This document shows, one piece after another, positions 37,026 through 56,506 of a DNA stretch of 64,000 nt (the stretch's first letter is position 1; each line of letters begins with the position of its first letter). The notes under the pieces are model-generated. The model saw only the letters and a program-made list of their open reading frames with translations, did no database searches and was not told the DNA's origin. This stretch comes from an uncultured delta proteobacterium. Its GTDB lineage: Bacteria; Desulfobacterota; Desulfobaccia; Desulfobaccales; 0-14-0-80-60-11. A program made the translations under genes and the position numbers. The stretch covers positions 45,948 through 109,947 of the forward strand of contig CAVTZS010000009.1 of assembly GCA_963739295.1 (NCBI GenBank), read 5' to 3'.

Positions 37026-37084
37026 AAAATCAGGCCCTTAATTAAAAATTTTGGTTATATTTTAACATAGGGAGAGAAGTTTGG

Positions 37085-37831: not shown

Positions 37832-37915
37832 GGCCGGCCCGCTAAAAAATAATAAGGGGTTTCTTTATTGGCTTACCCGCGTTGGCCCTGGGAAAGAGAT
37901 TACTAGGAGGCGCTG

Positions 37916-38215
37916 ATGAAGCTGGTAATCAAGGTGATAGAGATCAAAGGCAACTGCCCGGTATATAAAGTGGGCGACCAAATAGTCCTGAGAGATGGCT
38001 ACATTTTGGACCCTGGGGCAACCGACCCGGTATGCATGAATTCCTTGGCTTCTCTAATGCCCTATTATGTCGCCCTGTCCAGAGGCATGAAACCCAAAGA
38101 CCTGGGCCTGGCCCGAGGAGACTCGGAAGAAGCCTACTTGCAGTGCCTGGATCCCTGCGAGATTACCGGCGGGGGTACGGTGCTCCTGGAGGTTAGCCGG
38201 GTAAGCGAAACGTAG
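37916..38215 (+). CDS. small conserved hypothetical protein (resembles the TIGR04076 family)
   Basis: 99 aa. IKGNCPVYKVGD...VCMNSLASLMPYY...CLDPCE pattern. Family name is from memory only. Confidence 0.5.
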   Translation: MKLVIKVIEIKGNCPVYKVGDQIVLRDGYILDPGATDPVCMNSLASLMPYYVALSRGMKPKDLGLARGDSEEAYLQCLDPCEITGGGTVLLEVSRVSET

Positions 38216-38227
38216 CATCGGACTTTC

Positions 38228-39355: not shown

Positions 39356-40378
39356 ATGAATCTTGCCCGGGAAAATCTGCTCCAAGACCTAGGTCGGCTA
39401 GTCATCTGGTACCCGTTTCGCTGGCTCACCAGATTTTTACCTGTGCCGGCTAACCTGGCCATTTACGAAGCTTTCGGAGACCTGGCTTATCATATTTATT
39501 CACCCAAGCGGGCTTTGATTACCCGGCGTCTGGCCCAAGCATTTCCCCAAATGGGGTCGGCGGCGCAGTCGGCTGAGGTCCGGGCCAGTTTTCGCAACTA
39601 TTTCGTGGATCGCTTTATTATCAACCTGTTACCGAGCCTGGACCGCACTCACATTGATCGCTTGGCCGTTTTGGAAGGGGAGGAGCATCTCCGCCAAGCG
39701 CAAGCCCGGGGCCGCGGGGTAATCTTAATCCATGCCCATTTTGGGATCAGCCAGTTACCCTTGATATACCTGGGTTACAAAGGCTACCCCATGGCCCAAA
39801 TGGGGTTGCGGGTCGATATGGGCACCAGTGTTATCGGCAAGAGAACCCAAAGGTTGCGCATAAAGATCGAAGAGCAGATGCCCGTGACCCATTTTTACGC
39901 GGATAATTATCTCCGCCCGGTTCTTCGCTGGCTGGAGAATGGCAATATCCTCATGACCGCGGGAGATGGGACCGGCGGGGGACGCTACATCGGCAAGTTC
40001 CACCAGGCTTCCCTTCTGGGCCACCCCCTGGACATGCCCCTGGGGCCCTACCGCCTGGCGGCGGCGCAACAATCCCCCATCCTCCCCATAATTGCCCTGC
40101 GCCAGGGCCGGGGATTTTACCGCATAATCATCCATCCGCCGCTGCCCTTGGAACGTAATGCCGAATCTACCCAGAGACGTTTCGTCACGTGGTTTGAACA
40201 TTATCTCACTCTCGCTCCTGGACAATGGCACTTTTGGGATGAATGGGACCTGGAGCACCCGCCAGATTATTCTAGACCACCCCAAGAACAAGGGGAAGAC
40301 AGGCCAGCCAAAGCCCGAATGGTCCCCGAGACCTTACCCCCAATGGAAGATATGCAAAAAATTATCAATGCAGGCTGA
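39356..40378 (+). CDS. LpxL/HtrB-like (lysophospholipid/lipid A) acyltransferase family protein
   Basis: 340 aa. Layout and the GRGVILIHAHFGISQ (HX4-type) block resemble lauroyl acyltransferases. Clear paralog of 50789..51832. Confidence 0.65.
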   Translation: MNLARENLLQDLGRLVIWYPFRWLTRFLPVPANLAIYEAFGDLAYHIYSPKRALITRRLAQAFPQMGSAAQSAEVRASFRNYFVDRFIINLLPSLDRTHIDRLAVLEGEEHLRQAQARGRGVILIHAHFGISQLPLIYLGYKGYPMAQMGLRVDMGTSVIGKRTQRLRIKIEEQMPVTHFYADNYLRPVLRWLENGNILMTAGDGTGGGRYIGKFHQASLLGHPLDMPLGPYRLAAAQQSPILPIIALRQGRGFYRIIIHPPLPLERNAESTQRRFVTWFEHYLTLAPGQWHFWDEWDLEHPPDYSRPPQEQGEDRPAKARMVPETLPPMEDMQKIINAG

Positions 40379-41528
40379 CCCGGCTCTCAATTCACCAAGT
40401 AATTTAAAGAAAATAATCTTTGCCTTATTAGACAGAGGATTTCGCTCTTTCCCTCCGGCCAGATTTTTCCCCTGTCTCTCTCCCCCTACCCACCTTTTTT
40501 TGTTGCGTACCCATGCCATCGGTGATGTCTTGCTCACCACCCCGGTTATCCGGGCCCTAAAGCAGGCCTGGCCCCAAACCCGGCTAACCATGCTGGTGGG
40601 TGAGAAGTCCCGCCCGATCCTGGAAGGCAACCCCTATATTGATAGGCTATTGTCCTTTCCCGAATCCTGGTGGTTTAATCACCAATTTAGCCAGGTCTGG
40701 CGCCTGACCCGGACTCTGCGCCAATATCCCAAGGATGGTCTGATCCTTTTCCACGCCTCCCCCTTATTGCACCTCTGGGGCTTCCTGCTCAAAGCCCCCC
40801 TCCGGGTAGGTTTTGATAACCAGGGATCCGGTTTTTCCTTGACCCACAGAGTACCCCTGAGCACCCAGAGCCAACGTTACCTCGGAGATATAAATCTCGA
40901 TCTGGTCCGGATCTTAGGCCTGCCGGGGGGAAGTCTGGAATTGGACCTATTTATCCAGGGACCGGAGCTTCAGGCGGTAAAGCGATTCCTGCCCCGCCAG
41001 AACAAGCGGCAGTTGCTGGTGGGCATTGCGCCAGGGGGAGGCCAAAATCCCCTGGAACAAATCTCGGTCAAACAATGGCCAATGGACCACTATGTAAAAT
41101 TGCTCTTGGCCTTGTCACGATTATATCCCGTGGATTTCCTATTGCTCGGCGACCAGTATGATACCCAGGTCGATGAAATTGCTGCCCAGGTCTCTCAAGG
41201 AGGGGCCAAAGTAATTAACCTCAAGGGCCAAACTACCCTTCGAGAACTGGCCGCGCTGATTCATCACCTGGATCTCCTGATTACTAATGACTCTTCCCCC
41301 CTCCACATCGCGGTGGCCTTAAAGAAACCGGTCGTGGGACTGTTCGGCCCCACGGCGGCCAGGGCGCTTTTCCCTGGGGGACCTAATCGAGTGGCCCTGC
41401 AGAGCCCAGCCGCATGCAGCCCCTGTTACGCCTTTGGCCGTTTCCCCGGATGTTCCGCCCCTACCTGCATGGCCGCGATTACTGTGGAAAGCGTCACTCA
41501 GGCAGTGGAAGCTATTCTTGGCGAGTAA
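40368..41528 (+). CDS. glycosyltransferase family 9 (heptosyltransferase-like)
   Basis: Start taken at the ATG at 40368 (MQADPALN...), overlapping the previous gene by 11 nt. LLRTHAIGDVLLTTPVIRALKQAWP and LITNDSSPLHIAVAL blocks are typical of GT9. Confidence 0.8.
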   Translation: MQADPALNSPSNLKKIIFALLDRGFRSFPPARFFPCLSPPTHLFLLRTHAIGDVLLTTPVIRALKQAWPQTRLTMLVGEKSRPILEGNPYIDRLLSFPESWWFNHQFSQVWRLTRTLRQYPKDGLILFHASPLLHLWGFLLKAPLRVGFDNQGSGFSLTHRVPLSTQSQRYLGDINLDLVRILGLPGGSLELDLFIQGPELQAVKRFLPRQNKRQLLVGIAPGGGQNPLEQISVKQWPMDHYVKLLLALSRLYPVDFLLLGDQYDTQVDEIAAQVSQGGAKVINLKGQTTLRELAALIHHLDLLITNDSSPLHIAVALKKPVVGLFGPTAARALFPGGPNRVALQSPAACSPCYAFGRFPGCSAPTCMAAITVESVTQAVEAILGE

Positions 41529-42497
41529 GCCAGGCCAACATCTACTCCCCCCGGGACAACTTTATTTTCCTTGACAGAAGGGCTTTTGCTGGATAAATTT
41601 TCTTATCCTTTCGTTTTGATTAAAAGCTCCAGAAGAATTAAGGGAAAAGATAGAGCTGACCACTGCGGTCAAGTAATCCCCTCCGAGAAGGTGTAAAAAA
41701 CAATCCCCTTAGTAAAGGAACCACCTCTCAGGAGATGCATCCTTCCCTCCTTTTTTCAATGCAAAGCTAACCGTCCAGATGGAGAATCCAGTTGCGGCGC
41801 GATATTTCTAAGATAGCCAGTAGAATGTAAGCAGCTGGGAAAGTGCGGCCTTAAGCCCGTGACTTATACGCTACAATGGGGCCCTGAGGCCAACAAGCCG
41901 GCGGCCTTTTATATTATCAAAAACCTGCCCCAAGCCGATAACTAGGTTAAGGACATGAGGCCAGGGGCTCCGTCAAGGAGCCGTCGCTATGACTCGATAA
42001 AATCAGCAATATTTCCCGACCAGAGCCCTGGGTCAGCCAGGCCGTGCTTACTAAGCGGGATTTTCGATTTCCACCAGATTTTTTTTGATAATGGACTGGG
42101 CGACAACTTGAGCAAGATTGGAGTTCCTTTTCCCAGATTTTTTGCGCGCCCCCGGATGCCTTAATTTCTCCTAAAGAGCGGAAAGTTCGATAATTAAACA
42201 TTGAGATGGTATACCAATGACCGTCTGGAAAACTACCTCATGGGTCATAAGGTGCGGATGGCTCGCCCTAGCGTTCGCCATTTTCTCTGCCAGCTCTATG
42301 GGAGACGATGCCCGAGAATTTTGACCTTGGTGCGGGAAGTCCTACAGGAGCGCCATGTTTAGGGCAACGGACTTACCCCTGCCCAGCTTTGTTTAATTTT
42401 TTTGCCAACATGTTCCACTAGTTAAACCTCCACCTCTAAACAAAAGGTTATAAATAGCTAAGTATATAAATTTGCCAGATATTTTATTTCATACATC

Positions 42498-42513
42498 TGG
42501 TATGGCCCTTGCT
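42498..42513 (+). promoter_or_regulatory. candidate sigma54 (-24/-12) promoter of the AOR operon
   Basis: TGGTATG-GCCC-TTGCT. GG and GC are at the consensus spacing (TGGCACG-N4-TTGCW). Lies 265 nt upstream of the AOR ATG. Confidence 0.5.
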
Positions 42514-42778
42514 TCTCTGACTTGTAAGGCCTCGAGCGCTGGGGTCTCTATACCCTCAGCGACTGAACCTGGAATGGTGAGGTCAGGTTTCAGAACCTTC
42601 AACTACTAGAAGAGATTAGTTATACGGGGGAAAAGGAAAAAAGTGGCGCCGTATTGACCTTTTCCCTTGCCGTTTATACTGAAATTTGTTTAAACTTTAT
42701 AAGGGGGAAAGGAAGCATTATTACAGCAGCTTTTTTAGATGTAATTGGTATCTCCCTCCTGGGTGGGGGGGTGAATAA

Positions 42779-44671
42779 ATGTTGGACCGTCAAAAGATCT
42801 GCCATATAGATTTAGCCAAAGAAGAAAGTAAAGAAGAAGATATTACCGATGAATTGCGTTCTCAGTTTCTTGGTGGCAGAGGTATCAATATTTATCTTCT
42901 CTATACTCACACTACCTCTCAAACAAAAGCTCTTGATCCGGACAACCCCCTGATTGTCGGCGCTGGCTTACTTTCCGGTACTCCCGCTCCATGTGCTGCC
43001 CGCTGCTCCATCGCGGGCAAATCACCCGAGACAGGACTGTTGGGAGATTCAAATATCGGGGGGTTCTTTGCCGCCCAATTAAGGAAAACCGGCTATGACC
43101 ACCTATTGATTAAAGGGCAGTCACCCGAACCGATCTACATTTATTTAGAGAGAGGAAAAGTCGAAATCCGAGATGCTTCTCATCTATGGGGCAGAGATAC
43201 CTTAGAGACCATGAACTTCCTTAAGGAGGCGCATGGTAAATCAAGTGAATCCTTAGTGATCGGGCCCGCGGGAGAAAATCTGGTTAGGTTTGCTACAGTG
43301 AGGCATGGGAGGAAGAATACCGCGGGCAGAACCGGTCTCGGGTGTCTCATGGGGTCCAAGAAGGTTAAGGCTATCGTGGTCAAAGGAGACCGACCCCCGC
43401 TCCTGAAGTATCCCAAGGAGATGATCCCCTATTGCCGGGAGCTCACGCAAATCATTAAAGGAACCAGGACCACTGAAGTATTGCATCGCTACGGCACCCC
43501 GGTTCTCTTCGATTTGCATAACTTACGCGGCATTTTGAGAACCTTGAATGGCCAACTCAATCAGTTCCAAGAGGGACGCGGCTTAAGATCATCTCATCTT
43601 AAGACTTACTATACCAGGGCGAGCGGATGTTTTTCTTGTCCCATCAGATGCCAACATGGTTATAAGTTTCAAGATGGAGATAAGAGGGAGTTTGTTGGGG
43701 ACGGTTTGGAATATGGGGTAATTGGCGCCTTGGGACCAATCTGCGGCCTTAATAATTTGGCAAGTATTTTCGAAATTAATGATCTCCTTAATCGTTATGG
43801 GCTCGATGCCAGTTCTACGGGGAATATTATTGCCTGGGTGACGGAACTCTTTCAAAGGAGGATTATTACCGAAAGAGAGACTGGAGGATTATCATTAAAC
43901 TGGGGAGACGAAAAAGTTATTATTGAACTCATTAAACAAATGGTCGAGAGAAGGGGTTTTGGAAATTTACTGGCCCAGGGGGCAAAGGAGGCCTCAGAAA
44001 AATTAGGAGAGGCATCTAAAAAGTATTTAATCTGGTCCAAGTATCTTCCTCAGTCGGATTCGGTGGACTTAAGGGCCTATAGAGGATTCGCTCTGGGAGT
44101 TGCCACCTCTACCCGGGGAGCTGATCATTTGCGGAGTCGTCCTACCCTGGAGGCGCTGAATTTATCAAATGAGGAGTTACTCAAGGTCTACGGTAAGAGC
44201 GTCCCCAATGATCCCACCGCCTATCAAGAAAAGCCTTACATGGTCTGGTGGTCTGAGATTAATTTTGTTCTGGGAGACGCTTTGGGCATATGTCGATTTG
44301 CTCAGAAATTCAATAATATCAATCACCTGGGCATAGAGGAATTTTCCCAGTTAATTTATTACGCTACCGGGTTGTCTTTGTCATCGGAGGATCTTATCAG
44401 GATAGGAGAGAGAATTATAACCCTGGAAAGGATGTTTCTTAAGCGGGAGGGCATCGATCGGAGGAGCGATAGCCTCCCTGATAGATACTTCGATGAGCCT
44501 ATGCCCTCGGGACCGTTCCAGGGGGAGAGACTAGATCGGGATGCCTTTAACCAGATGTTAGATGATTATTATAGAATCCACCACTGGAATTTAGCTACGG
44601 GGAACCCCACGCCAGATGTAGTCAAGAGTTTAGGCTTGGCGGCGGTAGTGAAAGAGGAGGAAATGTGGTAA
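42779..44671 (+). CDS. aldehyde:ferredoxin oxidoreductase family (tungstopterin enzyme)
   Basis: 630 aa. N-terminal FLGGRGINIYLLY...DPDNPLIVGAGLLSGTPAP...SIAGKSPETG...IRDASHLWG. [4Fe-4S] ligands CFSCPIRC plus a later LGICRF. C-terminal DSLPDRYFDEPMPSGP. Confidence 0.9.
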   Translation: MLDRQKICHIDLAKEESKEEDITDELRSQFLGGRGINIYLLYTHTTSQTKALDPDNPLIVGAGLLSGTPAPCAARCSIAGKSPETGLLGDSNIGGFFAAQLRKTGYDHLLIKGQSPEPIYIYLERGKVEIRDASHLWGRDTLETMNFLKEAHGKSSESLVIGPAGENLVRFATVRHGRKNTAGRTGLGCLMGSKKVKAIVVKGDRPPLLKYPKEMIPYCRELTQIIKGTRTTEVLHRYGTPVLFDLHNLRGILRTLNGQLNQFQEGRGLRSSHLKTYYTRASGCFSCPIRCQHGYKFQDGDKREFVGDGLEYGVIGALGPICGLNNLASIFEINDLLNRYGLDASSTGNIIAWVTELFQRRIITERETGGLSLNWGDEKVIIELIKQMVERRGFGNLLAQGAKEASEKLGEASKKYLIWSKYLPQSDSVDLRAYRGFALGVATSTRGADHLRSRPTLEALNLSNEELLKVYGKSVPNDPTAYQEKPYMVWWSEINFVLGDALGICRFAQKFNNINHLGIEEFSQLIYYATGLSLSSEDLIRIGERIITLERMFLKREGIDRRSDSLPDRYFDEPMPSGPFQGERLDRDAFNQMLDDYYRIHHWNLATGNPTPDVVKSLGLAAVVKEEEMW

Positions 44672-46167
44672 CCCTGGTGGAAATGTTAGAAAAAAATGCC
44701 ATGAATATCCCCGATAAGGTGGCCATAATCCATCATGATCTGAGGATAACCTATGGCGAGCTAAATAATCAGGTAAATCGATTGGCCCATGCCTTATTAA
44801 GTCTAGGGCTGAAGAAGGAAGATCGGATCGGTTTAATGTTACCCAGGATACCTGAATTAGTTATTACTTTCCTGGCCGCGGCAAAAGCCCAAGGTATAGT
44901 GGCTCCAATAAATTTTGAATTAAATAGTAGAGAAATCACAGCTCTCTTAGAAAATCTTTCTCCGAGTTTTTTAATTATTCACGAATTTTTTCTTGACCTT
45001 GCGAAGAAGACTCTTCCCCAGAACCTGAAAATACCAGTTATTGTGGTGGGGAATAAATGTGACGATAATTTTTACTGCTGGGATGATATTTTAAAAGATC
45101 GTAATCAACATAACCTTTCTCTGGAAGTTAAAGAAGATGATGTAGTTTATCTTAATTACACTTCTGGAACCTCAGGGGCTCCTAAAGGCGCCATTACCAC
45201 CCATTCTAATATCTTATGGAATACCTTGGCGTCAGTGGAAACCTTGAAGCTTACCCCTGACGACATCCATTTGTGTATGTTTGCCCCCTTTGCGCATCCC
45301 CACGAGCTTTTTGCCAGGCCTCTCTATTTAGGGGGGACCTTCGTTTTGCTGGAAACGATAAGACCAAAGTCCATCGCCAGGAGCATCTCTGAAAATGAAG
45401 TTACCTGTTTAATGGCCATAGCCCCCATACTTATGACCCTCATGGAAATTGCCAGATCAGGCCAATATGACCTAAGTTCTTTAAGGATTCCAGAGAGTGG
45501 CGGAATGCACACCCGGGTAGAACTTATTAAGCAATTTGAGCAGAGATTTGGAGTACCTATTCTGCCGGTCTGGGGCAGCACCGAAACCACGGGTATAGCC
45601 ATTGCCAATTCCCCTGATAAAGGAGTGGTATACGGTTCGGTAGGAAGACCCTGCAAATCTTATGAGGTGAAGATTGTGGGCGAGGACGGGAAAGAATTGC
45701 CTCCTCATAAGACTGGAGATTTGATTTTCAGAGGACCAGGTATAGTTAGCGGATATTATAATAATAGCGGGAATCCGGATTCTTTTAAAAATGGCTGGTA
45801 TTTTAGTGGAGATCTGGCGAAGAAAGATGAGGAAGGCAATTTTTACTTTGTTGAAAGAAAAAGCGGAATGTTGAAGGTGGCGGGCCTCCAGGTTTATCCT
45901 TTGGAAATTGAGTTAACCCTATTGCGCCACCCTGCTATAAAAGAAGCTGCAGTAATTGGTGTCGAAGATAATCTGAGGGGTGAGGTACCTAAAGCCATAG
46001 TTGTCCCAAATAATGAACATAAGCTAAAAGAGAGAGAGATAATCCAGTATTGTCTGGATAATATGGCTCATTATAAAGTACCCCGGGTAATTGAGTTTCG
46101 GGAAGAGTTACCCAAGATAGGAAGCGGGAAAATTAATAAAAAGGCGCTAAAATTGGAGATAACATGA
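44665..46167 (+). CDS. AMP-dependent acyl-CoA/acyl-ACP synthetase (ANL superfamily)
   Basis: 500 aa. AMP-binding motif YTSGTSGAPKGA, WGSTET, GDL...DEEGNFYFVERKS, and a terminal GKINKK. The GTG start overlaps the AOR stop by 7 nt (AGGAGG 8 nt upstream); an alternative ATG lies at 44683. Confidence 0.88.
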   Translation: MVTLVEMLEKNAMNIPDKVAIIHHDLRITYGELNNQVNRLAHALLSLGLKKEDRIGLMLPRIPELVITFLAAAKAQGIVAPINFELNSREITALLENLSPSFLIIHEFFLDLAKKTLPQNLKIPVIVVGNKCDDNFYCWDDILKDRNQHNLSLEVKEDDVVYLNYTSGTSGAPKGAITTHSNILWNTLASVETLKLTPDDIHLCMFAPFAHPHELFARPLYLGGTFVLLETIRPKSIARSISENEVTCLMAIAPILMTLMEIARSGQYDLSSLRIPESGGMHTRVELIKQFEQRFGVPILPVWGSTETTGIAIANSPDKGVVYGSVGRPCKSYEVKIVGEDGKELPPHKTGDLIFRGPGIVSGYYNNSGNPDSFKNGWYFSGDLAKKDEEGNFYFVERKSGMLKVAGLQVYPLEIELTLLRHPAIKEAAVIGVEDNLRGEVPKAIVVPNNEHKLKEREIIQYCLDNMAHYKVPRVIEFREELPKIGSGKINKKALKLEIT

Positions 46168-47333
46168 AGGCTCTAGTAGTTGACTGCGAATGGAAACCTC
46201 GGGAAGGCTACACCTTAACCGAAGAGGAACGCCTTAACAAGAAAGCTTTCTCTGGCAGCCAGGTATGGAGAAATCCGCATTTCGAGATAAAGGAAGTCCC
46301 GACTCCCAATATAAATGACGACGAAGTTCTCATCAGAGTTAAGGCCTGTGGCATTTGCGGTTCCGATAGCCATCTCTATGAAACAGATAAAGAAGGCTAT
46401 ATTATCTTTTCTGGTCTAGTAAAACTACCCTGCATTTTGGGTCATGAGTTCTCTGGAATTGTTGAAGACGTTGGGGAAAAGGTGGCGAATTTAAAGGTTG
46501 GTGATGTAGTAGCGGTGGAAAGTATTCAATGGTGCGGTTTATGTACTTCCTGCCGCAGCGGCGCGCTAAACCAGTGCAGAAATATAGAGCTCATGGGGTT
46601 AAGTTCTAATGGGGCCTTTGCAGACTACATCGCCGTAAAAGAAAAGTACTGCTGGAAACTAAATAGCTTAAGAGAGCGTTACTCCCATGAAGAGATTTTT
46701 GAAATAGGAGCTCTGATAGAGCCTATTGGCTGTGGGTATAATGGCATATTCATAAGTGGTGAGGGCTTCAAGCCTGGCGAGACCATGGTGGTATATGGCC
46801 TGGGTCCCATTGGCCTAGCCTCCATTGCCTTGGCCAAAATTGCCGGAGCCAGCAAGATCATAGCCTTTGACAAACTTGCCCCGCGCTTGGAGTTAGCCAA
46901 AAGTATGGGGGCGGATTTCGTATTTAATATTGAAGGGTTAGTTAGTGAAAACTCTGGGCCTGGTTACAAGGTTCTGGAATTAACCCACGGGGAAGGAGCT
47001 GATATCCAAATAGAGGCAGCAGGTGATGCCCCGTACACCATTCCAGAGATGGAGAAGGCTACTGCCCCTAACGGAAGGATAATTTATCTGGGCCGGGCCC
47101 AAAGGTCTACTCCCATGTTCTTGGATGCCCTGGTTTCCGGCGCCAATAAAATTGTGGGTGCCCGGGGACACTCCGGATATGGGATATTTCCGAATATCAT
47201 CAGGCTTATTGCCTCGGGTAGACTTGAAGTTAGAGAAATGATTACTGCCAGATATCCCTTTGACAACGTCATAGAGGCGATAGAGAGGTCTTCGCAGAGG
47301 ATTGATGGAAAAATTATGATAAAGATGTCTTAA
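46164..47333 (+). CDS. zinc-dependent medium-chain dehydrogenase (sorbitol/threonine-dehydrogenase-like)
   Basis: 389 aa. GICGSDSHLY, GHEFSGIVEDVG, structural-zinc CGLCTSCRSGALNQC, and VVYGLGPIGLA. ATGA overlap with the ligase gene. Confidence 0.85.
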   Translation: MKALVVDCEWKPREGYTLTEEERLNKKAFSGSQVWRNPHFEIKEVPTPNINDDEVLIRVKACGICGSDSHLYETDKEGYIIFSGLVKLPCILGHEFSGIVEDVGEKVANLKVGDVVAVESIQWCGLCTSCRSGALNQCRNIELMGLSSNGAFADYIAVKEKYCWKLNSLRERYSHEEIFEIGALIEPIGCGYNGIFISGEGFKPGETMVVYGLGPIGLASIALAKIAGASKIIAFDKLAPRLELAKSMGADFVFNIEGLVSENSGPGYKVLELTHGEGADIQIEAAGDAPYTIPEMEKATAPNGRIIYLGRAQRSTPMFLDALVSGANKIVGARGHSGYGIFPNIIRLIASGRLEVREMITARYPFDNVIEAIERSSQRIDGKIMIKMS

Positions 47334-47372
47334 GCGAGGAACAAGTAATCCATACTACGCAGATATATTATT

Positions 47373-48842
47373 ATGCATATACTTCTCCTTAATCCGTCAT
47401 TCTTGAGCCAATATGGCAAATTTTCACGGGAACAGAGGAGTCCTGCTATTACCAAAAGTGGGACACTTTATTATCCCATGTGGCTTTCTTATGCCACAGG
47501 CGTTCTGGAAAAAAATGACTTCCACGCCACATTATTTGATTGCCCTGCTGATAATATCCAAACAAGTGATATAAAAGTATTTGTGAAAAACCATAAACCA
47601 CGCTTAGTAGTAATTGATACCAGTACACCCAGTATTTACGACGACCTGCAGATAGGTGAAATCATAAAGTCAATCAATCCAGATACCTTCATAGTACTTG
47701 TGGGTCCGCACGTTTCAGCACTTCCTGAGGATACCTTGAATTGTAGCCTAGACGTAGATGCGGTGGCAATGCATGAATATGAATACACCCTCTTAGATTT
47801 GGCCAATTCCCTCAAAAATAATACGGATTGGCGAAGCATTCCAGGGCTCTGTTATCGGGTCAATGGAAAGATTATAAGAAACCCCAAGAGAGAATTTATC
47901 AAAGATTTGGATTCCATACCTTTTGTGAGCTCCGTTTACAAAAGGCATCTCAATTACAAAAATTATTTCTACGCTCACAGCCGCTACCCCATCTTAACCA
48001 TAATCACCGGTAGGGGGTGCCCTTACCAATGTATCTACTGCGTCTATCCTCAAACTTTTAGTGGCCGAAAAGTACGATACCGAAGTATAGAAAATGTTGT
48101 GGAAGAAATCGAATTTATCTTAAAGGAGTTCCCAGATGTAAAGGAAGTGATGTTTGAGGACGATACCTTGACTCTTAATAAGAAGAGATGTTTTGAATTT
48201 GCTGAGGAAATTCTGAGACGAAACATTAGATTTAACTGGTCTGCCAATTCGAGAGCCGATGTTGATTTGGAAACCCTGAAGATTTTAAAACGGGCTGGAG
48301 CCAGACTCTTATGCGTGGGAATTGAAAGTGGGGATCAGTTGTTACTGGATAAAATGAAAAAGAATCTTAAATTGGAGCAGGTCAGGCAATTTTTTCAAGA
48401 CGCAAAAAAAGCGGGGATTTTGATTCATGGCTGTTTCTTAGTGGGAGTTCCCGGGGAGACGAAGGAAAGCTTGCAAAAAACTCTCTCCCTGGCAAAGGAA
48501 CTAAATCCCGATACCGCCCAATTCTTTCCGATAATGGTTTATCCTGGTACCGAAGCTTACCACTGGGCCCAGGAGCAAAATTATTTAATAACCAATGACT
48601 TTCGCCAGTGGGTTACTGAAGATGGATTGCATAATTGTGTGATAAGCCGGCCAGGCCTTAGTAATAAAGATTTAGTGGAATTTTGTGATAACTCCAGGAG
48701 AGAATTTTACCTGAGACCTTCTTATATCACTAAAAAGATAATGATGAGCCTTACAAGCTATCATGAGTTTAAAAGGCTAGTTAAAGGAGCTCGATCATTG
48801 TCAAAATTTATTCTTAGAGGAACTACTCAAAGGGAAGGTTAG
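47373..48842 (+). CDS. B12-binding-domain radical SAM protein
   Basis: 489 aa. N-terminal cobalamin-binding-like domain (ILLLNP...VVIDTSTPS...VGPHVSALPE). Radical SAM CX3CX2C in GRGCPYQCIYCVYP. Confidence 0.85.
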   Translation: MHILLLNPSFLSQYGKFSREQRSPAITKSGTLYYPMWLSYATGVLEKNDFHATLFDCPADNIQTSDIKVFVKNHKPRLVVIDTSTPSIYDDLQIGEIIKSINPDTFIVLVGPHVSALPEDTLNCSLDVDAVAMHEYEYTLLDLANSLKNNTDWRSIPGLCYRVNGKIIRNPKREFIKDLDSIPFVSSVYKRHLNYKNYFYAHSRYPILTIITGRGCPYQCIYCVYPQTFSGRKVRYRSIENVVEEIEFILKEFPDVKEVMFEDDTLTLNKKRCFEFAEEILRRNIRFNWSANSRADVDLETLKILKRAGARLLCVGIESGDQLLLDKMKKNLKLEQVRQFFQDAKKAGILIHGCFLVGVPGETKESLQKTLSLAKELNPDTAQFFPIMVYPGTEAYHWAQEQNYLITNDFRQWVTEDGLHNCVISRPGLSNKDLVEFCDNSRREFYLRPSYITKKIMMSLTSYHEFKRLVKGARSLSKFILRGTTQREG

Positions 48843-48944
48843 GCACTAATTAACCTTATTTCTGATCTTCTCAATAATCTGAGCAGAGAGGACAGTCACC
48901 GCTTGCCTGACTCCGGGGAGAGCCAGAGCGCATAATTTAGGGTA

Positions 48945-49925
48945 ATGATGATTTCAGTGGTCATACCTGCTCATAATGAGGAAAAAACTATCGGCAATTG
49001 TCTAAAAGGTTTAATAACGCAAACCATTGACAAAGATAAATACGAAATAATTGTGGTAGACGACGGCTCAACAGATAATACATCCAATATCGTAAGTAAT
49101 TTTCGCGGGGTCAGGCTAATCAGGCAAAATAATCAAGGGCCGGCTGCCGCAAGGAATAAAGGAGCCCAAGAAGCAAAGGGAGAAATTATTTTATTTACTG
49201 ATTCAGATTGTGTCCCTTTCGATAATTGGATTGAAGAGATGGTAAGACCTTTTGACCCAAATTCTGAAGTAGTTGGCGTCAAAGGTGCCTACGAGACAAA
49301 CCAGAGAGAATTAATAGCTCGTTTCGTGCAAATCGAATATGAAGATAAATATGATAAATTAAAAAAGCAAACCTACATTGATTTTATCGACACTTACGCA
49401 GCAGGCTTTAGGCGGAATGTTTTTCTTCAAGCCAATGGATTTAATATGGAATTCCCGATAGCCTGTGCTGAAGATGTAGAACTATCTTACCGTTTAGCAA
49501 ACCGCGGCTATAAAATGGTATTTAACCCGAAGGCCAAAGTGAGTCATTTGCACCCAAGATCCCTTATGGATTATGTAAAGAAGAAATATAAATTTGCATA
49601 TTGGCGGATGTTAGCGATAAAGAAACATCCTAATAAGATATTGAACGATACACATACCCCTCAATCGATGAAAATTCAATTATTGTTCATTCCCTTTCTG
49701 GTAGCTTCTTTTGCTTTTCTTTTTCTTTCTCCAATATCTCTAAAAATAATAATTTCCTTATTAGTTTTATTTTATTTAACAACAATCCCTTTTATCATAA
49801 AAGCAGTAAGAAGGGACTTTGCTATAGGGGTCTTATCACCTTTTTATCTTCTCGTAAGGTCCAGCTCCCAATTTTTGGGAGTAACTAAAGGATTGATGGA
49901 CAACTTATTAAAAATTAAGAAATAA
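48945..49925 (+). CDS. family 2 glycosyltransferase with C-terminal TM segments
   Basis: 326 aa. SVVIPAHNEE, VVDDGSTDNT, and FTDSDC (DxD). Confidence 0.85.
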   Translation: MMISVVIPAHNEEKTIGNCLKGLITQTIDKDKYEIIVVDDGSTDNTSNIVSNFRGVRLIRQNNQGPAAARNKGAQEAKGEIILFTDSDCVPFDNWIEEMVRPFDPNSEVVGVKGAYETNQRELIARFVQIEYEDKYDKLKKQTYIDFIDTYAAGFRRNVFLQANGFNMEFPIACAEDVELSYRLANRGYKMVFNPKAKVSHLHPRSLMDYVKKKYKFAYWRMLAIKKHPNKILNDTHTPQSMKIQLLFIPFLVASFAFLFLSPISLKIIISLLVLFYLTTIPFIIKAVRRDFAIGVLSPFYLLVRSSSQFLGVTKGLMDNLLKIKK

Positions 49926-49941
49926 TTCTGACGTAAAATCA

Positions 49942-50538
49942 ATGTTTAAAAGATCGTTGGATATTATTTTAGCTACCTTTGGGCTGATATTTTTTTCACC
50001 CATTTTTATATTATGTAGTATAATAATATACTTTGGATCACCTGGGCCAATATTCTTTAGGCAAGAAAGATTGGGTAAGGATGGTAAGACTTTCAAAATC
50101 ATAAAATTTAGAACAATGGCAAAAAATGCGGAAAAGATTGTGAGGAACGATCCAGAATTGTACAATCTGTATAAAAAACAATACAAAATCCCCGAGGAAC
50201 AAAATTCATTAATGACTCCTTGGGGGAAAATCATGCGTAAAACCAGTATGGATGAACTACCTCAATTGTTTAATATTTTGAAGGGCAATATGAGTATTGT
50301 AGGGCCCCGGCCGATAGTGCCGGAGGAGATTATGGAATACGGAGCACATGGCCAGAAATTCCTTTCCGTAAAACCAGGGTTAACTGGATATTGGCAGGTT
50401 TCCGGAAGAAATCTGGTAGGCTACCCCCAAAGGGTCTTTTTAGATATGTATTACATCGATCATCAGTCCTTCTGGCTTGATCTTCAAATTATCTTGAAGA
50501 CCTTTCCGGTGGTATTAAAAATGAGAGGCACTCATTAG
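49942..50538 (+). CDS. small monotopic sugar phosphotransferase (PglC/WecA-unrelated 'bacterial sugar transferase' family)
   Basis: 198 aa. KRSLDIILATFGLIFFSPIF...GSPGPIFFRQERLGKDGKTFKIIKFRTM...DELPQLFNILKGNMSIVGPRP. Confidence 0.88.
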   Translation: MFKRSLDIILATFGLIFFSPIFILCSIIIYFGSPGPIFFRQERLGKDGKTFKIIKFRTMAKNAEKIVRNDPELYNLYKKQYKIPEEQNSLMTPWGKIMRKTSMDELPQLFNILKGNMSIVGPRPIVPEEIMEYGAHGQKFLSVKPGLTGYWQVSGRNLVGYPQRVFLDMYYIDHQSFWLDLQIILKTFPVVLKMRGTH

Positions 50539-50788: not shown

Positions 50789-51832
50789 ATGGAGATGATA
50801 ACGGACTCCAGGTTGGTTCCCACTGGCTCTTTGGCCCTGGCCCTAGTTGAGTTGGCGCGGGATTGCCGCCGCTGGTGCTATTGGTACCCCTGGCGGCGTT
50901 TGGTTCAGGTTCTGCCTCATCCCACCCGGCTGGCTGTGGCCCGTGTTCTAGGAAGCCTGTTCTATTGGTCCTCCCCTGCCTGGCGAACCATAACTATGTC
51001 CGAGCTGGACGCCAGCTTTCAACATTGCCCCCCACCTCAGGCCTTTTCGCGCCTGAGCCAATGGGGGGCCAGGCAATTCTACCAGTATCAGCTGGAAGTC
51101 TTTGCCTATCCTTGTCTTAAGCCCAGGGAGATGGAAAAATACTTTCCCCTTGAGGGTCAAAAGCACCTGGACCACGCCCAGCGCCAGGGCCGGGGAGTAT
51201 TGATCCTTCTGTCGCATCTGGGGGCCAATCAAATGATTATGCCGGCCCTGGGTTATCGGGGCTACCACCTCCACCAGATTAGCCGGCCGGCCCGGGCCGA
51301 TAACGATGAGTATGCCGGCCGGCGACTATCCCCTTGTTTCTTGAAAATCATCAATCTCCAGCGCTCCTATGAAGAGTCTTTGCCAGCCCAGCATATCGAT
51401 GTCACCCGGGGCCTGCTGCCAGCGTTTCGCAAGCTAAAGGCCAATGGCATGGTGGCCGTGGCTGGAGATGGCCGTTACGGGTCCGACTGGACGCCGCACC
51501 CTTTTTTAGGGCGGCCCGCCACCTTTTCCCCCGGTCCCTGGCTCATCGCCCATCGCACCGGGGCACCGGTGCTGCCCACTTTTGTCTTGCGGCCCATCCG
51601 CGGGAATATTTATCGAGTGATTATTGAACCGCCGTTGCCCTTGCCCTACGGGGCCGCGATTGAGGAATTTCTGGCTGCTGGCCTGGAGGCTTACATTGGC
51701 CGGCTGGAAGAGTATTTCTATCGCTATCCCTGGCAATACGTGCCGTTTCTGTATCTGGCCCGGCGCTACACCCAAGGCCGGGAAAACCAGTTTTTTCTGG
51801 ATTACCCCTCCGGGGAGATGCCTCAGCCCTAG
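50789..51832 (+). CDS. LpxL/HtrB-like acyltransferase family protein (paralog of 39356..40378)
   Basis: 347 aa. Alignable by eye with the 39356 protein (YPWRRLVQVLPHP vs YPFRWLTRFLPVP; GRGVLILLSHLGANQ vs GRGVILIHAHFGISQ). Confidence 0.65.
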   Translation: MEMITDSRLVPTGSLALALVELARDCRRWCYWYPWRRLVQVLPHPTRLAVARVLGSLFYWSSPAWRTITMSELDASFQHCPPPQAFSRLSQWGARQFYQYQLEVFAYPCLKPREMEKYFPLEGQKHLDHAQRQGRGVLILLSHLGANQMIMPALGYRGYHLHQISRPARADNDEYAGRRLSPCFLKIINLQRSYEESLPAQHIDVTRGLLPAFRKLKANGMVAVAGDGRYGSDWTPHPFLGRPATFSPGPWLIAHRTGAPVLPTFVLRPIRGNIYRVIIEPPLPLPYGAAIEEFLAAGLEAYIGRLEEYFYRYPWQYVPFLYLARRYTQGRENQFFLDYPSGEMPQP

Positions 51833-52087: not shown

Positions 52088-53662
52088 ATGCGTGTTCTGC
52101 TGATTCGCCCTCCGTATTCCCGCCTCCGGGGAACTGGCCATCCGGCCTATTTCCCTTTGGGCTTGGGTTATCTGGCCGCGGTCTTGGAGGAGGCGGGATT
52201 TGAGGTAAGTATTTATAACATGGAGCTTGAGGCCAGCCCTGGCAGAACCGAGATTATCAACGACGCCGAGGCCACCTTTTATCAGCGCTCTCAGGAACAG
52301 AAACGCTATTATCAGGCCGTGGCCCAAGATGACCTCCCGGTCTGGAAGGAACTGCAAGGAGTCTTAAATAGCTATAAGCCGGATCTGGTAGGGGTTACCC
52401 TGCTGTCCCCGGAAGTAGCCTCGGCCCGCAAGGTCTCTCAAATAGTCAAAGCCTGGCGGCCAAATTGTTGGGTGATCTGGGGGGGTAACCACCCCACCTT
52501 TCTGCCGGTGGAGTGCCTGGCCTATCCCGAGGTCGATATTGTCGGCCGAGGCGAAGGAGAATACACCCTACTGGAGGTGTCCCAGCGCCTGTCGAAGGGC
52601 CAGGGCCTCAGCGGGGTGGAGGGCATATCCTTCAAATCCAATGGGGATGTCTGTCATAACCCTAACCGCGCCCTGATTCAGAATTTAGATGAGATTCCTT
52701 TCCCGGCCAGGCATCGGCTATTATTCTATGACGAGTTTGACCACAAAAATCTAGGTTGTATGATCATCACCCGGGGCTGTCCCTGGCGTTGCGCTTTTTG
52801 CTCCTCCCGCAATTTCTGGGAGAAAAGAGTTCGATTCCGCTCCGCGGACAATGTGGTGGCCGAACTGCGTCAATTTCAGCAGACTTACGGCATCCGCTTC
52901 ATTATGTTCTGGGACGATTCCTTCAGCATCAATCGGGATATTGTCTGGCAGTATTGTCAGGCGATAATCGACAGCGGCATAGAAGTCATGTGGCGCACCG
53001 CCACTCGGGCCGACCTGGTGACCGAAGAACTGCTGCCTTGGATGAAGCGGGCCGGCTGCACCAAATTGGAGATCGGGGTCGAGACCGGCTCCCCCCGCAT
53101 ACAACGTTTGATTCACAAGGATATTGACAATGCCGACGTGGTCCGGGCCTTCAAGTTGCTAAAAAAAGGGGGTATCCCCGCCGGGGCCTTTTTTATGGCT
53201 GGATTTCCGGAGGAGACCATCGATGACTTGCAGCAGACTTTTGAGCTGATGAAATCCATCCCCTGCCTGGAGATCGCCTTCAACATTTTTGATCCCATGC
53301 CCGGCAGTGAACTTCTGGATACCTGTCAGAACTTAGGGCTGGTTTCGCCTCATCCCGATTGGAGCAATTTCTTGTTCTGGCCTGATAGTCACTTTATGAA
53401 ATACGTCAGCCCGGAAGAGTTTAACCGGCAGGCCTATGCCATGGCAGCCTGGATCTTTGCCCATAATAATCGCTGGATCAATCTGTTGCTCAAACAGGGC
53501 TACTTGGCTTGGTTTCTCCTGAGAAACGACCCCCGATTCCTATTTAAAAAGATCCTCCAGCGATTGAAAAAACGCCTCCAGGTACAGTTCTTGAAAAAAA
53601 CTACAGCCACTTGCCCAGCCGAGACCTTTTGCCTGCCCGGCGGGAGCAGGGAAAGAAAATAG
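52088..53662 (+). CDS. B12-binding-domain radical SAM protein
   Basis: 524 aa. MRVLLIRPPY...FPLGLGYLAAVLEEAGFEV and WGGNHPTF. CX3CX2C in TRGCPWRCAFCSS. Confidence 0.85.
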   Translation: MRVLLIRPPYSRLRGTGHPAYFPLGLGYLAAVLEEAGFEVSIYNMELEASPGRTEIINDAEATFYQRSQEQKRYYQAVAQDDLPVWKELQGVLNSYKPDLVGVTLLSPEVASARKVSQIVKAWRPNCWVIWGGNHPTFLPVECLAYPEVDIVGRGEGEYTLLEVSQRLSKGQGLSGVEGISFKSNGDVCHNPNRALIQNLDEIPFPARHRLLFYDEFDHKNLGCMIITRGCPWRCAFCSSRNFWEKRVRFRSADNVVAELRQFQQTYGIRFIMFWDDSFSINRDIVWQYCQAIIDSGIEVMWRTATRADLVTEELLPWMKRAGCTKLEIGVETGSPRIQRLIHKDIDNADVVRAFKLLKKGGIPAGAFFMAGFPEETIDDLQQTFELMKSIPCLEIAFNIFDPMPGSELLDTCQNLGLVSPHPDWSNFLFWPDSHFMKYVSPEEFNRQAYAMAAWIFAHNNRWINLLLKQGYLAWFLLRNDPRFLFKKILQRLKKRLQVQFLKKTTATCPAETFCLPGGSRERK

Positions 53663-53672
53663 ACCTAGAGCA

Positions 53673-54980
53673 ATGAAAGTTCTGCTACTGCAGCCATACC
53701 TAGGCCGGCGGGAGCTTCCCATCTTTCCCTTAGGCCTGGCCTGCCTGGCAACCCATCTGCCGGAGCACGAACTGCAGTCCCTTGATCTGAACGTGACTTC
53801 CCAGCCCCGGGAAGCCCTGTCCCAGGCCCTTAAGACCTTTGGTCCTGAAGTAGTGCTGATCTCCTTGCGCAATGTTGACACCACCTGGTATGGCGACCCC
53901 TTTTATTATTTTCCCACCTTTCAGGATCAGGTTCGCCAGGTCCGGGCCGCGGCTCCGAAGGCGCGGATCATCGTGGGCGGCTCCGGCTTCAGCATCTTTG
54001 CCCGGGAAATCATGATCCGCACCCCGGAGATTGACCTGGGCGTCGTCGGGGAGGCTGAAGAGGTTATCGTCGACCTGCTGACCCAGCCATTAACCCTTCC
54101 CAATGTTCTCTACCGGGAAGAAGCCGCCTTGGGGGGGAGCGCCCGGGCGGGCATTTCCTCTTTGGAGCATTATCTCCCTCCCCGCTATGATCTTTTCCCC
54201 CTGGGACCATATTTAAATAACCCCATAGGGGTGGGAGTGGAGACCAAAAGAGGTTGTCCCTTAACCTGTTCCTATTGTACCTATCCCCATCTAAACGGTC
54301 AGCGCTTCCGTCTCATCCGGCCGTCGGTTATCGTCAGCCTGTTGGGTGAACTTAAGGAGCGGCACGGGGTAACGAGATTTACCTTTACTGATTCCATCTT
54401 TAATATGCCCCGGGCTCATGCGGAAAAGGTGCTCCAACTGCTTATTGCCGCCAAACTGGGGCTTAAGTGGGAGGCCTACTTCCATGAGAGCCATTTTGAC
54501 GCGGACTTCTTAAACTTGAGCCTAGAGGCGGGTTGCGACAAATTCTGGTTTTCCCCGGATGGGCTTACCTCCCATGCTTTGCGGGCCCTGGGAAAAGAGC
54601 AAACTGCCGCGGAAGTCAGGCGGACCTGGCGTTTGGTCACCGCCAGGAAAGAAGTTAGCTCCAATTTCAGTTTCTTTTGGCAATATCCCGGAATGCGTTG
54701 GCGGGACTTTGGGGCCCTGGTGAGCTTTTACCTGTGGCATCGCCTCCACGGCCGCCAGGGCACGGTCATAACTTTTAACAAAATTCGCATCGAACCTGGG
54801 ACTTCCATTAGAGCCCAAGCGGTGGCCGAGGGATTGATCGGGGCTGATGACCCCCTTTTGCCAAGGCAACCCTCTGAGATGCTGGGAATGTTTTATCACC
54901 AGCCGCGGCCTGGATTTATCGATTGGAGTTATGATTTGTTACTGATGTTAAAGCGGTGCCACTTAGCTAACTCTCCATGA
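53673..54980 (+). CDS. B12-binding-domain radical SAM protein
   Basis: 435 aa. MKVLLLQPY...FPLGLACLATHL and VGGSGFSIF. CX3CX2C in KRGCPLTCSYCTYP. Confidence 0.8.
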   Translation: MKVLLLQPYLGRRELPIFPLGLACLATHLPEHELQSLDLNVTSQPREALSQALKTFGPEVVLISLRNVDTTWYGDPFYYFPTFQDQVRQVRAAAPKARIIVGGSGFSIFAREIMIRTPEIDLGVVGEAEEVIVDLLTQPLTLPNVLYREEAALGGSARAGISSLEHYLPPRYDLFPLGPYLNNPIGVGVETKRGCPLTCSYCTYPHLNGQRFRLIRPSVIVSLLGELKERHGVTRFTFTDSIFNMPRAHAEKVLQLLIAAKLGLKWEAYFHESHFDADFLNLSLEAGCDKFWFSPDGLTSHALRALGKEQTAAEVRRTWRLVTARKEVSSNFSFFWQYPGMRWRDFGALVSFYLWHRLHGRQGTVITFNKIRIEPGTSIRAQAVAEGLIGADDPLLPRQPSEMLGMFYHQPRPGFIDWSYDLLLMLKRCHLANSP

Positions 54981-55015
54981 GGCGGCTTTTTTCTTTGTTA
55001 AGGGCCTAAAGGGAC

Positions 55016-56395: not shown

Positions 56396-56506
56396 AGAAC
56401 CAAAGATAGGACAGTTGGTTTCCACAACATTGACAACCTTTGCATCGTATTTATTAAGATCCTTTGGTGTAAAGATCAGTCTTAATTTATGGTCTGGGAG
56501 TTACCG

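Follow-up and report, generated by a model that had tools for sequence, protein, structure and literature searches.

The gene block and its composition

The stretch of DNA analysed here (the window) covers 64 kb of contig CAVTZS010000009.1 from an uncultured delta proteobacterium, and six plus-strand genes at positions 42779-50538 form a compact block within it. The block opens with the gene for an AOR-family oxidoreductase of 630 aa (42779-44671; Pfam AFOR_N and AFOR_C, E = 3e-73 and 1e-104), followed by the genes for an ANL-superfamily adenylate-forming ligase of 500 aa with a GTG start (44665-46167; AMP-binding and AMP-binding_C) and for a Zn-dependent medium-chain dehydrogenase (MDR) of 389 aa (46164-47333; ADH_N and ADH_zinc_N). 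These are succeeded by an HpnJ-like B12 radical SAM enzyme (47373-48842; B12-binding and Radical_SAM), a family-2 glycosyltransferase (GT2; 48945-49925; Glycos_transf_2, E = 1e-38) and a small phosphoglycosyltransferase (PGT) of 198 aa that consists of the catalytic domain only (49942-50538; Bac_transf over the full length, E = 2e-64). All six genes are intact and packed in an operon-like manner, and their full-length Pfam matches agree with the families, and their positions with the coordinates, given in an earlier, sequence-only reading of this DNA.

That reading had built on two gene overlaps, and both were found in the sequence. The stop codon TAA of the AOR gene lies at 44669-44671 and the GTG of the ligase gene begins at 44665, which gives an overlap of 7 nt, and an ATGA is common to the ligase and MDR genes. 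Support for the GTG start comes from homologous ligases, which open with (M/V)TLVEMLE at the equivalent overlapping codon. The other spacings are 39 nt (MDR to radical SAM gene), 102 nt (radical SAM gene to GT2) and 16 nt (GT2 to PGT), and no terminator-like sites were found on the plus strand in these three gaps. Overlapping genes, narrow spacings and the lack of terminator-like sites between the genes favour the predicted co-transcription of the six genes.

The block was also said to be compositionally foreign to the backbone, and this is borne out by the base composition. The GC content across 42-51 kb is 0.35-0.48 compared with about 0.54 in the backbone, and the GC content at third codon positions (GC3) is 0.33-0.50 in the individual block genes as opposed to 0.61-0.73 in those that flank it. 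The change is abrupt at about 41529 and again at about 50788. To the left, the low-GC block is bounded by a gap of 1250 nt without a convincing open reading frame (41529-42778; GC 0.46). It contains short reading frames only, its last ~400 nt can be partly aligned with the related locus L001, and it would presumably hold the promoter of the cassette. No RNA element was detected by Rfam in this gap, either at the gathering score or at E ≤ 1, and no motif was kept beyond the closest relative when the upstream regions of five loci were aligned. Direct or inverted repeats were not found at the block borders, nor was any tRNA gene found in the window. Sequence matches in DNA runs came from wetland, peat and freshwater-sediment metagenomes, and an exact-protein look-up of the window AOR gave no match. 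A CoA-transferase encoded in the backbone has named neighbours at 77-80% identity; by this single marker, the backbone is probably that of a Thermodesulfobacteriota / Syntrophobacterales-like bacterium.

Recurrence of the block in other genomes

AOR homologues of 51-82% identity were traced to their contigs, and species-representative genomes were scanned and then compared with the window proteins by tblastn; the neighbourhood sample comprised a few dozen loci. The neighbourhood of the window is repeated in L001. In L002 and L058 the three leading genes stand in an export-type polysaccharide locus of the order PGT-Wza-AOR-ligase-MDR-HEAT-Wzc-(Phosphodiest)-Wzy-Wzx. In L003/L004, which are a Thermodesulfobacteriota metagenome-assembled genome (MAG) and a Logan contig and possibly derive from one sample, the AOR gene is followed by a fused ligase-MDR gene, the radical SAM gene, GT2, the small PGT, an LpxL-like gene, GT9 and another LpxL-like gene. 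The fusion protein has 888 aa and is joined in frame (...KKALGYGGS-MKALV...). The order AOR-ligase-MDR-GT2-PGT-rSAM (rSAM, radical SAM) was observed in L059 beside Wzy, Wzx, an LpxL-like gene and a kinase, and L060 (Schekmanbacteria) carries an AOR, a nucleotidyltransferase-PGT fusion, Wza, ligase, MDR, Wzc, a B12 radical SAM enzyme and an LpxL-like protein. The same set in a divergent arrangement was present in L145/L146 (AOR of 51% identity), together with a sulfotransferase, GT4, Wzy, Wzx and an LpxL-like gene. The setting consists of lipopolysaccharide (LPS)-type genes in the window genome and of Wza/Wzc/Wzx/Wzy exopolysaccharide (EPS) loci in other lineages; Wza, Wzc, Wzx and Wzy accompany a PGT around the ligase-MDR pair in L002, L058, L060, L062-L064 and L145.

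The association followed the relatedness of the AOR. According to tblastn, AORs of at least 51% identity adjoin a ligase and/or an MDR wherever the contig suffices, whereas AORs of 47% identity or less adjoin neither. In a neighbour-joining tree without bootstrap the ligase/MDR-linked AORs form one clade, and the next branches come from Desulfovibrionaceae (L016; Wza-rSAM-GT2-AOR) and from L012 (GT9-GT2-AOR-GT2). A catabolic setting as the usual one for the triad of AOR, ligase and MDR would have made its position in the window coincidental; the relatives of at least 51% identity with enough contig were all located in glycan loci. The link to glycan-assembly genes proposed in the sequence-only reading is therefore recurrent (L001-L003, L058-L060 and L145) and not a coincidence. 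The suggestion that AOR, ligase and dehydrogenase act as one functional unit was likewise strengthened, as the coupling is conserved and ligase and MDR are fused in L003/L004. The triad is far beyond what chance would produce: independent contigs assigned to several phyla show this gene order again, with 4-nt overlaps or with ligase and MDR fused in frame.

The tightest association was that of ligase and MDR. Their genes overlap by 4 nt in nine of ten independent loci and are fused in the tenth. Moreover, the pair also occurs in three EPS loci, from Thermodesulfovibrio, a Brocadiales anammox bacterium and a Nitrospirota MAG, with no AOR within 10 kb; the layout there is PGT-Wza-ligase-MDR-Wzc-Wzx-Phosphodiest-LpxL-like-B12 rSAMs. 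This implies that the AOR is not an obligatory link between ligase and MDR. About 11 of the 120 listed clusters of MDR homologues share a contig with an AOR, according to a rough match by eye in which most contigs were too short. The constant core is the ligase-MDR pair, and the AOR looks like an accessory that joined it in one clade.

In the two AOR-less Nitrospirota loci a 700-aa molybdopterin oxidoreductase is encoded upstream of a nucleotidyltransferase-PGT fusion (L062:3374-5476 and L064:3475-5577). It was considered as an analogue of the AOR and rejected: the protein resembles FdhA/PhsA, and since both loci are closely related and probably share synteny, coincidence is the likely cause.

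The block has evidently moved as a unit, because its position relative to the LpxL-GT9-LpxL genes and its GC content differ between the window and L003. In L003 the cassette lies upstream of LpxL-GT9-LpxL and has the native GC content, and in the window it has a low GC content and lies between GT9 and the second LpxL-like gene.

Features of the encoded enzymes

The best PDB match of the window AOR was 1aor, the AOR of Pyrococcus furiosus (336 bits; BamB, 215 bits), and AFOR_N and AFOR_C span its full length as in the AOR/WOR family of tungstopterin oxidoreductases. The [4Fe-4S] ligands C284, C287, C291 and C505 (PfAOR 288, 291, 295 and 494) and the pterin-binding GLD and DxxGxC motifs (G341-L-D343 and D500..G503.C505) do not vary among 19 members of the clade. 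Aldehyde-oxidising members have a conserved second shell of Thr243, Glu313, Tyr427 and His448, with Glu313 as the proton acceptor (PMC12096430, PMC13328260). Only half of this set is kept in the window AOR: T240 (Thr243) and H450 (His448) are present, Glu313 is replaced by Gly313 (EYG compared with EYE in 1aor, 9mqx and 9g7j and DYE in WOR5), and Tyr427 is replaced by Val429 after a three-residue insertion (motif LPQSDSVD). In addition, Tyr452 is replaced by Arg (motif RGADHLRSRP). Glu311 is retained and might act as a stand-in for the missing Glu313. The losses of Glu313 and Tyr427 are common to the whole subfamily down to ~40% identity, beyond the glycan clade; its members in L001-L041 have Gly, Thr or Ser for Glu313 and Val or Ala for Tyr427, and they share the invariant motifs CxxCxxxCxH, LPQSD(S/P)VD and RGxDHLRSRP. 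On the basis of the tblastn comparison and the tree, the window AOR is assigned to a glycan-locus clade inside a larger uncharacterised subfamily. No gene for a partner subunit adjoins the AOR gene. A TupABC-like three-gene ABC transporter is encoded 15 kb from it (25094-27476, minus strand), with TupA and TupB scores of 256 and 155 bits that are both under the NCBIfam cut-offs.

The ligase carries the ANL core motifs A3 (YTSGTSGAPKG), A5 (WGSTET), A7 (FSGD) and A10 (GSGKI), as read in the translation. It reached no cut-off among the NCBIfam acyl-CoA ligase equivalogs (FadD, MenE, benzoate-CoA ligase and others); its top model was PRK06187, with 394 bits compared to a cut-off of 476, and the other models stayed far under theirs. 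Its nearest solved relatives in PDB are feruloyl-/fatty-acyl-, anthranilate- and benzoate-CoA ligases. In amino-acid-activating ANL domains the Asp of motif A4 binds the alpha-amino group. The A4 region of the window ligase, PFAHPHE, has no Asp. An amino-acid substrate was rejected on this ground, and the motif suggests that the enzyme activates a carboxylic acid of another kind. A fatty acid or a sugar acid, as put forward in the sequence-only reading, is possible as the substrate of the block enzymes.

The MDR passed the NCBIfam cut-off for scyllo-inosose 3-dehydrogenase IolM over its full length (537 bits compared to 450; TDH, 216 bits). Its top PDB match was 3ip1 (283 bits), which we take to be the IolM of Thermotoga maritima. 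The Zn ligands Cys62, His94, Glu95 and Glu186, the four structural Cys residues and Asp236 are invariant in 20 homologues. By these matches the enzyme is placed in the polyol/secondary-alcohol branch (IolM/TDH-like) of the MDRs. The use of NAD is suggested by Asp236, located where the second Rossmann strand ends, and the MDR is probably NAD-dependent. A role in the conversion of aldehyde to alcohol is not obvious, since the characterised relatives are secondary-alcohol, polyol or cyclitol dehydrogenases.

The surroundings of the MDR were not those of inositol catabolism (IolG, IolN, IolO): ligase and glycan genes surrounded it in at least ten loci, and the only IolG-like (GFO) domain in the window belongs to an unrelated fusion protein. 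This protein of 612 aa (6340-8178, plus strand) joins a partial Zn-MDR nucleotide-binding domain to a GFO/IDH/MocA oxidoreductase (IolG-like, 99 bits), and its gene is located immediately upstream of a full-length PGT. More than 120 clusters of MDR homologues were found at 63-70% identity, a number well above that of the AOR clade. The EPS-linked MDRs form a tight group of 63-84% identity that is always paired with the ligase, and no ligase was seen beside MDR relatives of 51% identity or less. A metagenome scan with the MDR alignment picked up generic MDR motifs, mostly in unrelated dehydrogenases of 51% identity or less, and served as a negative control only. The public name of the EPS-linked proteins P0131, P0145, P0160, P0163, P0224, P0226, P0232 and P0236 is "scyllo-inosose 3-dehydrogenase". 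As ligase and polysaccharide genes adjoin in the examples examined and no inositol catabolism is encoded nearby, this name has probably been over-propagated.

The B12 radical SAM enzyme of the block matched the NCBIfam HpnJ model over its full length with 420 bits, which is under the cut-off of 577, and the next best model was BchE (181 bits). No hopanoid genes were present among the annotated reading frames of the window. Judged by these scores, the enzyme is a predicted paralogue of HpnJ. Its orthologues, with 46-69% identity, adjoin GT2, PGT or Wza in L003, L059, L008, L016 and L145, and GT2 is kept beside the radical SAM enzyme and PGT in L003, L059, L016 and L145. The NCBIfam models EPS_sugtrans and WbaP match the PGT by their C-terminal domain. 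The radical SAM enzyme, GT2 and small PGT are a second sub-module, which is joined with AOR-ligase-MDR in the window and in L003. For HpnJ and the calditol synthase Cds, contraction of the ring of a lipid-linked hexose to a cyclitol has been proposed (PMC13459092), and the likeness of the window enzyme to HpnJ may be taken as a lead in this direction.

Sister AORs in ketosynthase operons

Beyond the glycan clade, the AORs nearest to that of the window have 41-47% identity and belong to Dehalococcoidia, Nitrospirota, Syntrophia and lineages related to these; a sister AOR is also found in Desulfovibrio inopinatus. Some 20 loci share a strongly conserved operon of the order (B12 rSAM)-AOR-ketopantoate-reductase-like-200 aa-KS-alpha-KS-beta-cyclase-fold protein-... 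(KS, ketosynthase); these are L017-L025, L029, L031-L035, L037, L041 and L053 (e.g., L020:9992-18208). A B12 radical SAM gene stands directly upstream of the sister-clade AORs in L017, L021, L023, L025 and L039, and two ANL ligases precede the operon in L017. The top match of the ketosynthase was the actinorhodin ketosynthase (396 bits), and the KS-alpha/KS-beta pair resembles that of type II polyketide or fatty acid synthases. Judged by its gene content, the cluster looks biosynthetic rather than catabolic and is apparently undescribed. The ketosynthase context strengthens the view that this branch of AORs acts on acyl intermediates in biosynthesis.

Flanking genes and other features of the window

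To the left of the block lie the genes for an LpxL/PatA-like acyltransferase (39356-40378, plus strand; Lip_A_acyltrans; GC3 0.62, typical of the backbone) and for an enzyme of the GT9 heptosyltransferase family (reading frame 40158-41528, plus strand; Glyco_transf_9; GC3 0.62). The true start of the latter is probably an ATG at ~40368, because its homologues have ~385 aa and the listed reading frame overlaps the acyltransferase gene by 220 nt. The same two genes adjoin the cassette in L001 and L003. On the other side of the block, the plus strand encodes a second acyltransferase of the LpxL-like kind (50789-51832) and, after it, three more radical SAM enzymes with a B12-binding domain (52088-53662, 53673-54980 and 55016-56395), as identified by Pfam and NCBIfam. 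LpxL-like genes and B12 radical SAM genes also accompany the ligase-MDR pair in L003, L059, L060, L062, L064 and L145.

Radical SAM genes are dense in the window (35961-38968, 52088-56806 and 62702-63994). Besides the enzyme of the cassette they encode an AmmeMemoRadiSam enzyme, two small radical SAM proteins and four full B12-binding radical SAM enzymes; a 105-aa B12-binding fragment lies at 56489-56806, and a phytoene-desaturase-family flavoprotein (61290-62660) adjoins the last radical SAM gene. A second low-GC island (1783-5856; GC3 0.32-0.43) is located within another glycan cluster, which comprises ManC, a full-length PGT, an epimerase and WecB. The island encodes a KASIII-like ketosynthase, an SDR reductase, a 322-aa protein without a family match and a polysaccharide deacetylase with DUF3473. 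Finally, a c-di-GMP-I-GGC riboswitch aptamer was detected at 16003-16084 on the minus strand (74.7 bits, over the gathering score), upstream of a gene for an SLT-domain lytic transglycosylase (14856-15710, minus strand).

A possible role in the tailoring of envelope glycans

The interpretation that we prefer, and to which we give about even chances, is that the block at 42779-50538 is a mobile priming-and-tailoring cassette for a lipid-linked envelope glycan, which would make an activated oxo- or hydroxy-acid substituent. The small PGT would transfer a sugar-1-phosphate onto polyprenyl phosphate and GT2 would add a second sugar. The HpnJ-like radical SAM enzyme could then remodel the sugar, either by contraction of the ring to a cyclitol, as proposed for HpnJ and Cds, or by C-methylation. 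The ligase would adenylate a carboxylic acid that is not an alpha-amino acid (e.g., a hydroxy/oxo-acid, a sugar acid or a cyclitol-carboxylate), and the NAD-dependent, polyol-type MDR would interconvert a secondary alcohol and a ketone on the same acid. The activated acyl group might be placed on the glycan by the ligase itself or by the LpxL/PatA-like acyltransferases, which almost always co-occur. In this scheme the AOR would be an accessory feeder that oxidises an aldehyde to the acid with ferredoxin as the acceptor, or it would act on the same substrate in a related redox step at low potential.

Several observations weigh against this interpretation. With Glu313 and Tyr427 absent, oxidation of an aldehyde by the AOR is possible but not assured. 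Neither a carrier protein nor a dedicated acyl transferase was identified in any locus examined. The window contains PGTs only and no homologues of Wza, Wzc, Wzx or Wzy within its 64 kb, which bears on the fate of the glycan, and no match to the window sequence was obtained in the RNA runs checked. The radical SAM-GT2 pair is absent, within the sequence seen, from the ligase-MDR loci L002 and L058; the six genes would accordingly be two or three sub-modules and not one indivisible pathway. Furthermore, the MDR of L145 is another one (30% identity) and its ligase is divergent too. In the same locus a bifunctional DAHP synthase/chorismate mutase (L145:5801-6874, minus strand; 482 bits compared to a cut-off of 279) is inserted between the MDR and the HpnJ-like gene. 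With another MDR and this insertion, the substrates may differ among the variants. The DAHP synthase was considered as a general clue to the substrate and set aside, since it was found only in L145, where ligase and MDR diverge.

The sequence-only reading had envisaged that the triad moves a carboxylate through the levels of acid, activated acyl group, aldehyde and alcohol. This ladder is not supported: AORs use free acids and aldehydes, not activated acyl groups, no acyl-CoA/ACP reductase is present, and the polyol type of the MDR, the three loci with a ligase-MDR pair and no AOR, and the non-canonical site of the AOR do not fit it either. A chemically coherent form of the idea, in which all three enzymes are used in one pathway, would start from a dicarboxylic or oxo-acid. 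The AOR would reduce one carboxylate to an aldehyde with reduced ferredoxin, the MDR would convert the aldehyde to an alcohol, and the ligase would activate the other carboxylate for transfer of the hydroxy-acyl group onto a sugar, as an anaerobe counterpart of tetronate formation in V. cholerae O1. The reduction of acids by AOR and alcohol dehydrogenase is established in acetogens (bioRxiv 10.1101/2024.07.29.605569), an acid-tailoring set with an ATP-binding ligase-like protein is present in the O-antigen locus VC0248-VC0252 (PMC3441752), and the ligase of the block is distantly similar to 4-hydroxybutyrate-CoA ligase, among many others. At the same time, an MDR of the secondary-alcohol/polyol branch that is probably NAD-specific and an AOR with a non-canonical active site are poorly suited to this route, and the three AOR-less loci would need another source of aldehyde, which leads us to regard it as unlikely. 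Another explanation of the gene content would be a catabolic module that lies beside glycan genes by chance, converting for instance ethanol via acetaldehyde and acetate to acetyl-CoA. The three enzyme families fit such a pathway and an island could have landed anywhere, but the association recurs across several glycan-locus architectures and in MAGs assigned to several phyla, the AOR gene of L002/L058 stands between Wza and Wzc, and the AORs form one clade, none of whose loci has a catabolic context. The neighbourhood analysis has largely refuted this explanation, and we consider it highly improbable.

The remodelled active site directs attention to BamB. The AOR might perform a low-potential step on the CoA thioester made by the ligase, with the MDR acting in the manner of Had on a hydroxy-acyl-CoA, and the envelope polymer would receive an acyl group that is alicyclic or reduced in some other way. 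The presence of Gly, Val and Arg in place of Glu313, Tyr427 and Tyr452 and the motifs of the subfamily agree with this, as do the aromatic-acid CoA ligases among the nearest solved ligases, the DAHP synthase/chorismate mutase of L145 and the sister AORs, whose KS-alpha/KS-beta operons are accompanied by B12 radical SAM enzymes and ligases. Had is also a Zn-MDR, though the match is weak (95 bits). Against these points, the window AOR is closer to PfAOR than to BamB, BamC-I-like electron-bifurcating partners are missing, the DAHP synthase occurs in one variant locus only, and the MDR is far nearer to IolM than to Had; we rate a BamB-like function as improbable. A different role for the AOR would be to supply reduced ferredoxin mainly to the local B12 radical SAM enzymes, without building a substituent itself. 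Such enzymes accompany the AOR in the window (four nearby) and in L003, L059, L008, L016 and L145, they stand directly upstream of the five sister AORs named above, and the AOR gene of L145 is followed by a 43-codon reading frame, a gene for a DUF362/4Fe-4S ferredoxin-domain protein and the sulfotransferase gene (L145:11981-14064, plus strand). Yet the AOR gene is translationally coupled to the ligase gene and not to the radical SAM gene, the three AOR-less loci are rich in B12 radical SAM genes, and a dedicated supply of aldehyde would still be needed, so that this role also has a low probability, of about one chance in ten.

Apart from the tailoring cassette, a speculative proposal concerns the AOR lineage itself. 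The window AOR could belong to a large, uncharacterised biosynthetic branch of WOR-type enzymes, in whose remodelled active site Glu313 and Tyr427 are missing and Arg, Asp and Ser residues are new. Instead of detoxifying aldehydes, these enzymes would perform a still unknown redox step at low potential on acyl or sugar-acid intermediates. Equally tentatively, one clade of this branch would feed envelope glycans and its sister clade would serve ketosynthase-based lipid or polyketide operons.

Comparison with known systems

The tetronate genes of V. cholerae O1 (VC0248-VC0252) resemble the block in that a dedicated set within a glycan locus, which includes the ligase-like ATP-binding protein WbeL, produces a small hydroxy-acid and activates it for attachment to a sugar (PMC3441752). 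Compared by description, the block differs from them by having no carrier protein, by a Zn-MDR of the polyol type and by an AOR as the redox partner. In the account of Morona et al. from 1995 the Vibrio set is said to comprise a carrier protein, a LuxC/E-type reductase and an iron alcohol dehydrogenase. In the systems of HpnI/HpnK/HpnJ, which act on hopanoid side chains, and of Cds, a hexosamine is attached to a lipid by a glycosyltransferase, and contraction of the sugar ring to a cyclitol has been proposed for the radical SAM enzyme (PMC13459092), and the radical SAM gene of the window adjoins GT2 in a comparable way. Here, in contrast, the radical SAM enzyme stays under the HpnJ cut-off, hopanoid genes were not seen, GT2 has no reported match to an HpnI model, and the presence of a PGT indicates that the acceptor is presumably linked to polyprenyl diphosphate.

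With the AOR of Pyrococcus furiosus the window enzyme shares the two-domain fold, the cysteines, the pterin motifs and the equivalents of Thr243 and His448; it differs by the loss of Glu313 and Tyr427 and by its context of glycan loci instead of aldehyde detoxification or fermentation. IolM of Thermotoga maritima is of the same secondary-alcohol/cyclitol branch as the window MDR, which scores over the IolM cut-off, whereas the EPS-linked MDRs are paired with a ligase and have no inositol-catabolism genes near them. The class II benzoyl-CoA pathway of obligate anaerobes uses a CoA ligase, the AOR-family BamB and the Zn-MDR Had, i.e., the same three families, on one acyl group, and BamB, by acting on benzoyl-CoA, demonstrates that an AOR-family enzyme can act on the product of a ligase. 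Unlike that pathway, the block encodes proteins nearer to AOR and IolM and has no BamC-I, hydratase or ring hydrolase. Finally, in the relatives the ligase-MDR pair is embedded among PGT, Wza, a Wzc-like kinase, Wzx and Wzy, as in Wzx/Wzy capsule or EPS loci with PglC-type small PGTs. What sets these loci apart from the usual ones is the ligase-MDR pair between wza and wzc, along with LpxL-like proteins, several B12 radical SAM enzymes and a PF01663 phosphodiesterase-family protein; the version in the window differs further in lying among LPS-type genes, with no Wzx/Wzy machinery within 64 kb.

Implications

The sequence-only reading knew of no glycan pathway that uses an AOR, and our literature searches found no description of one: nothing relevant was returned for AOR together with exopolysaccharide, LPS or glycosyltransferase, or for an EPS module of this kind. 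AOR-2 of D. alaskensis (PMC5193443) is an unrelated electron-transfer gene. A survey of tungsten oxidoreductases from 2026 assigns a defined physiological role to 5 of 92 clades, mostly catabolic or detoxifying oxidation of aldehydes, and the words glycosyl, polysaccharide and ligase are absent from it (PMC13328260). What is new is a dedicated AOR-family clade and a ligase-MDR tailoring pair inside glycan loci; the individual parts and the surrounding Wzx/Wzy- or LPS-type machinery are known.

The clade with its consistent envelope-glycan context and its sister group in ketosynthase operons offers an entry point to biosynthetic functions of the family. The analysis also draws attention to a widespread and undescribed pair of an ANL ligase and a polyol-type Zn dehydrogenase between wza and wzc, which occurs in EPS loci of Nitrospirota, anammox Planctomycetota, Thermodesulfobacteriota and candidate phyla. 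The surface polymers of these uncultured anaerobes bear on aggregation, granule formation and sediment biogeochemistry. The recurrence of the block in uncultured anaerobes of several phyla points to an undescribed role of the AOR family in building the cell envelope, and if the proposed biosynthetic branch is real, the surface chemistry of many of these organisms would depend on tungsten (or molybdenum).

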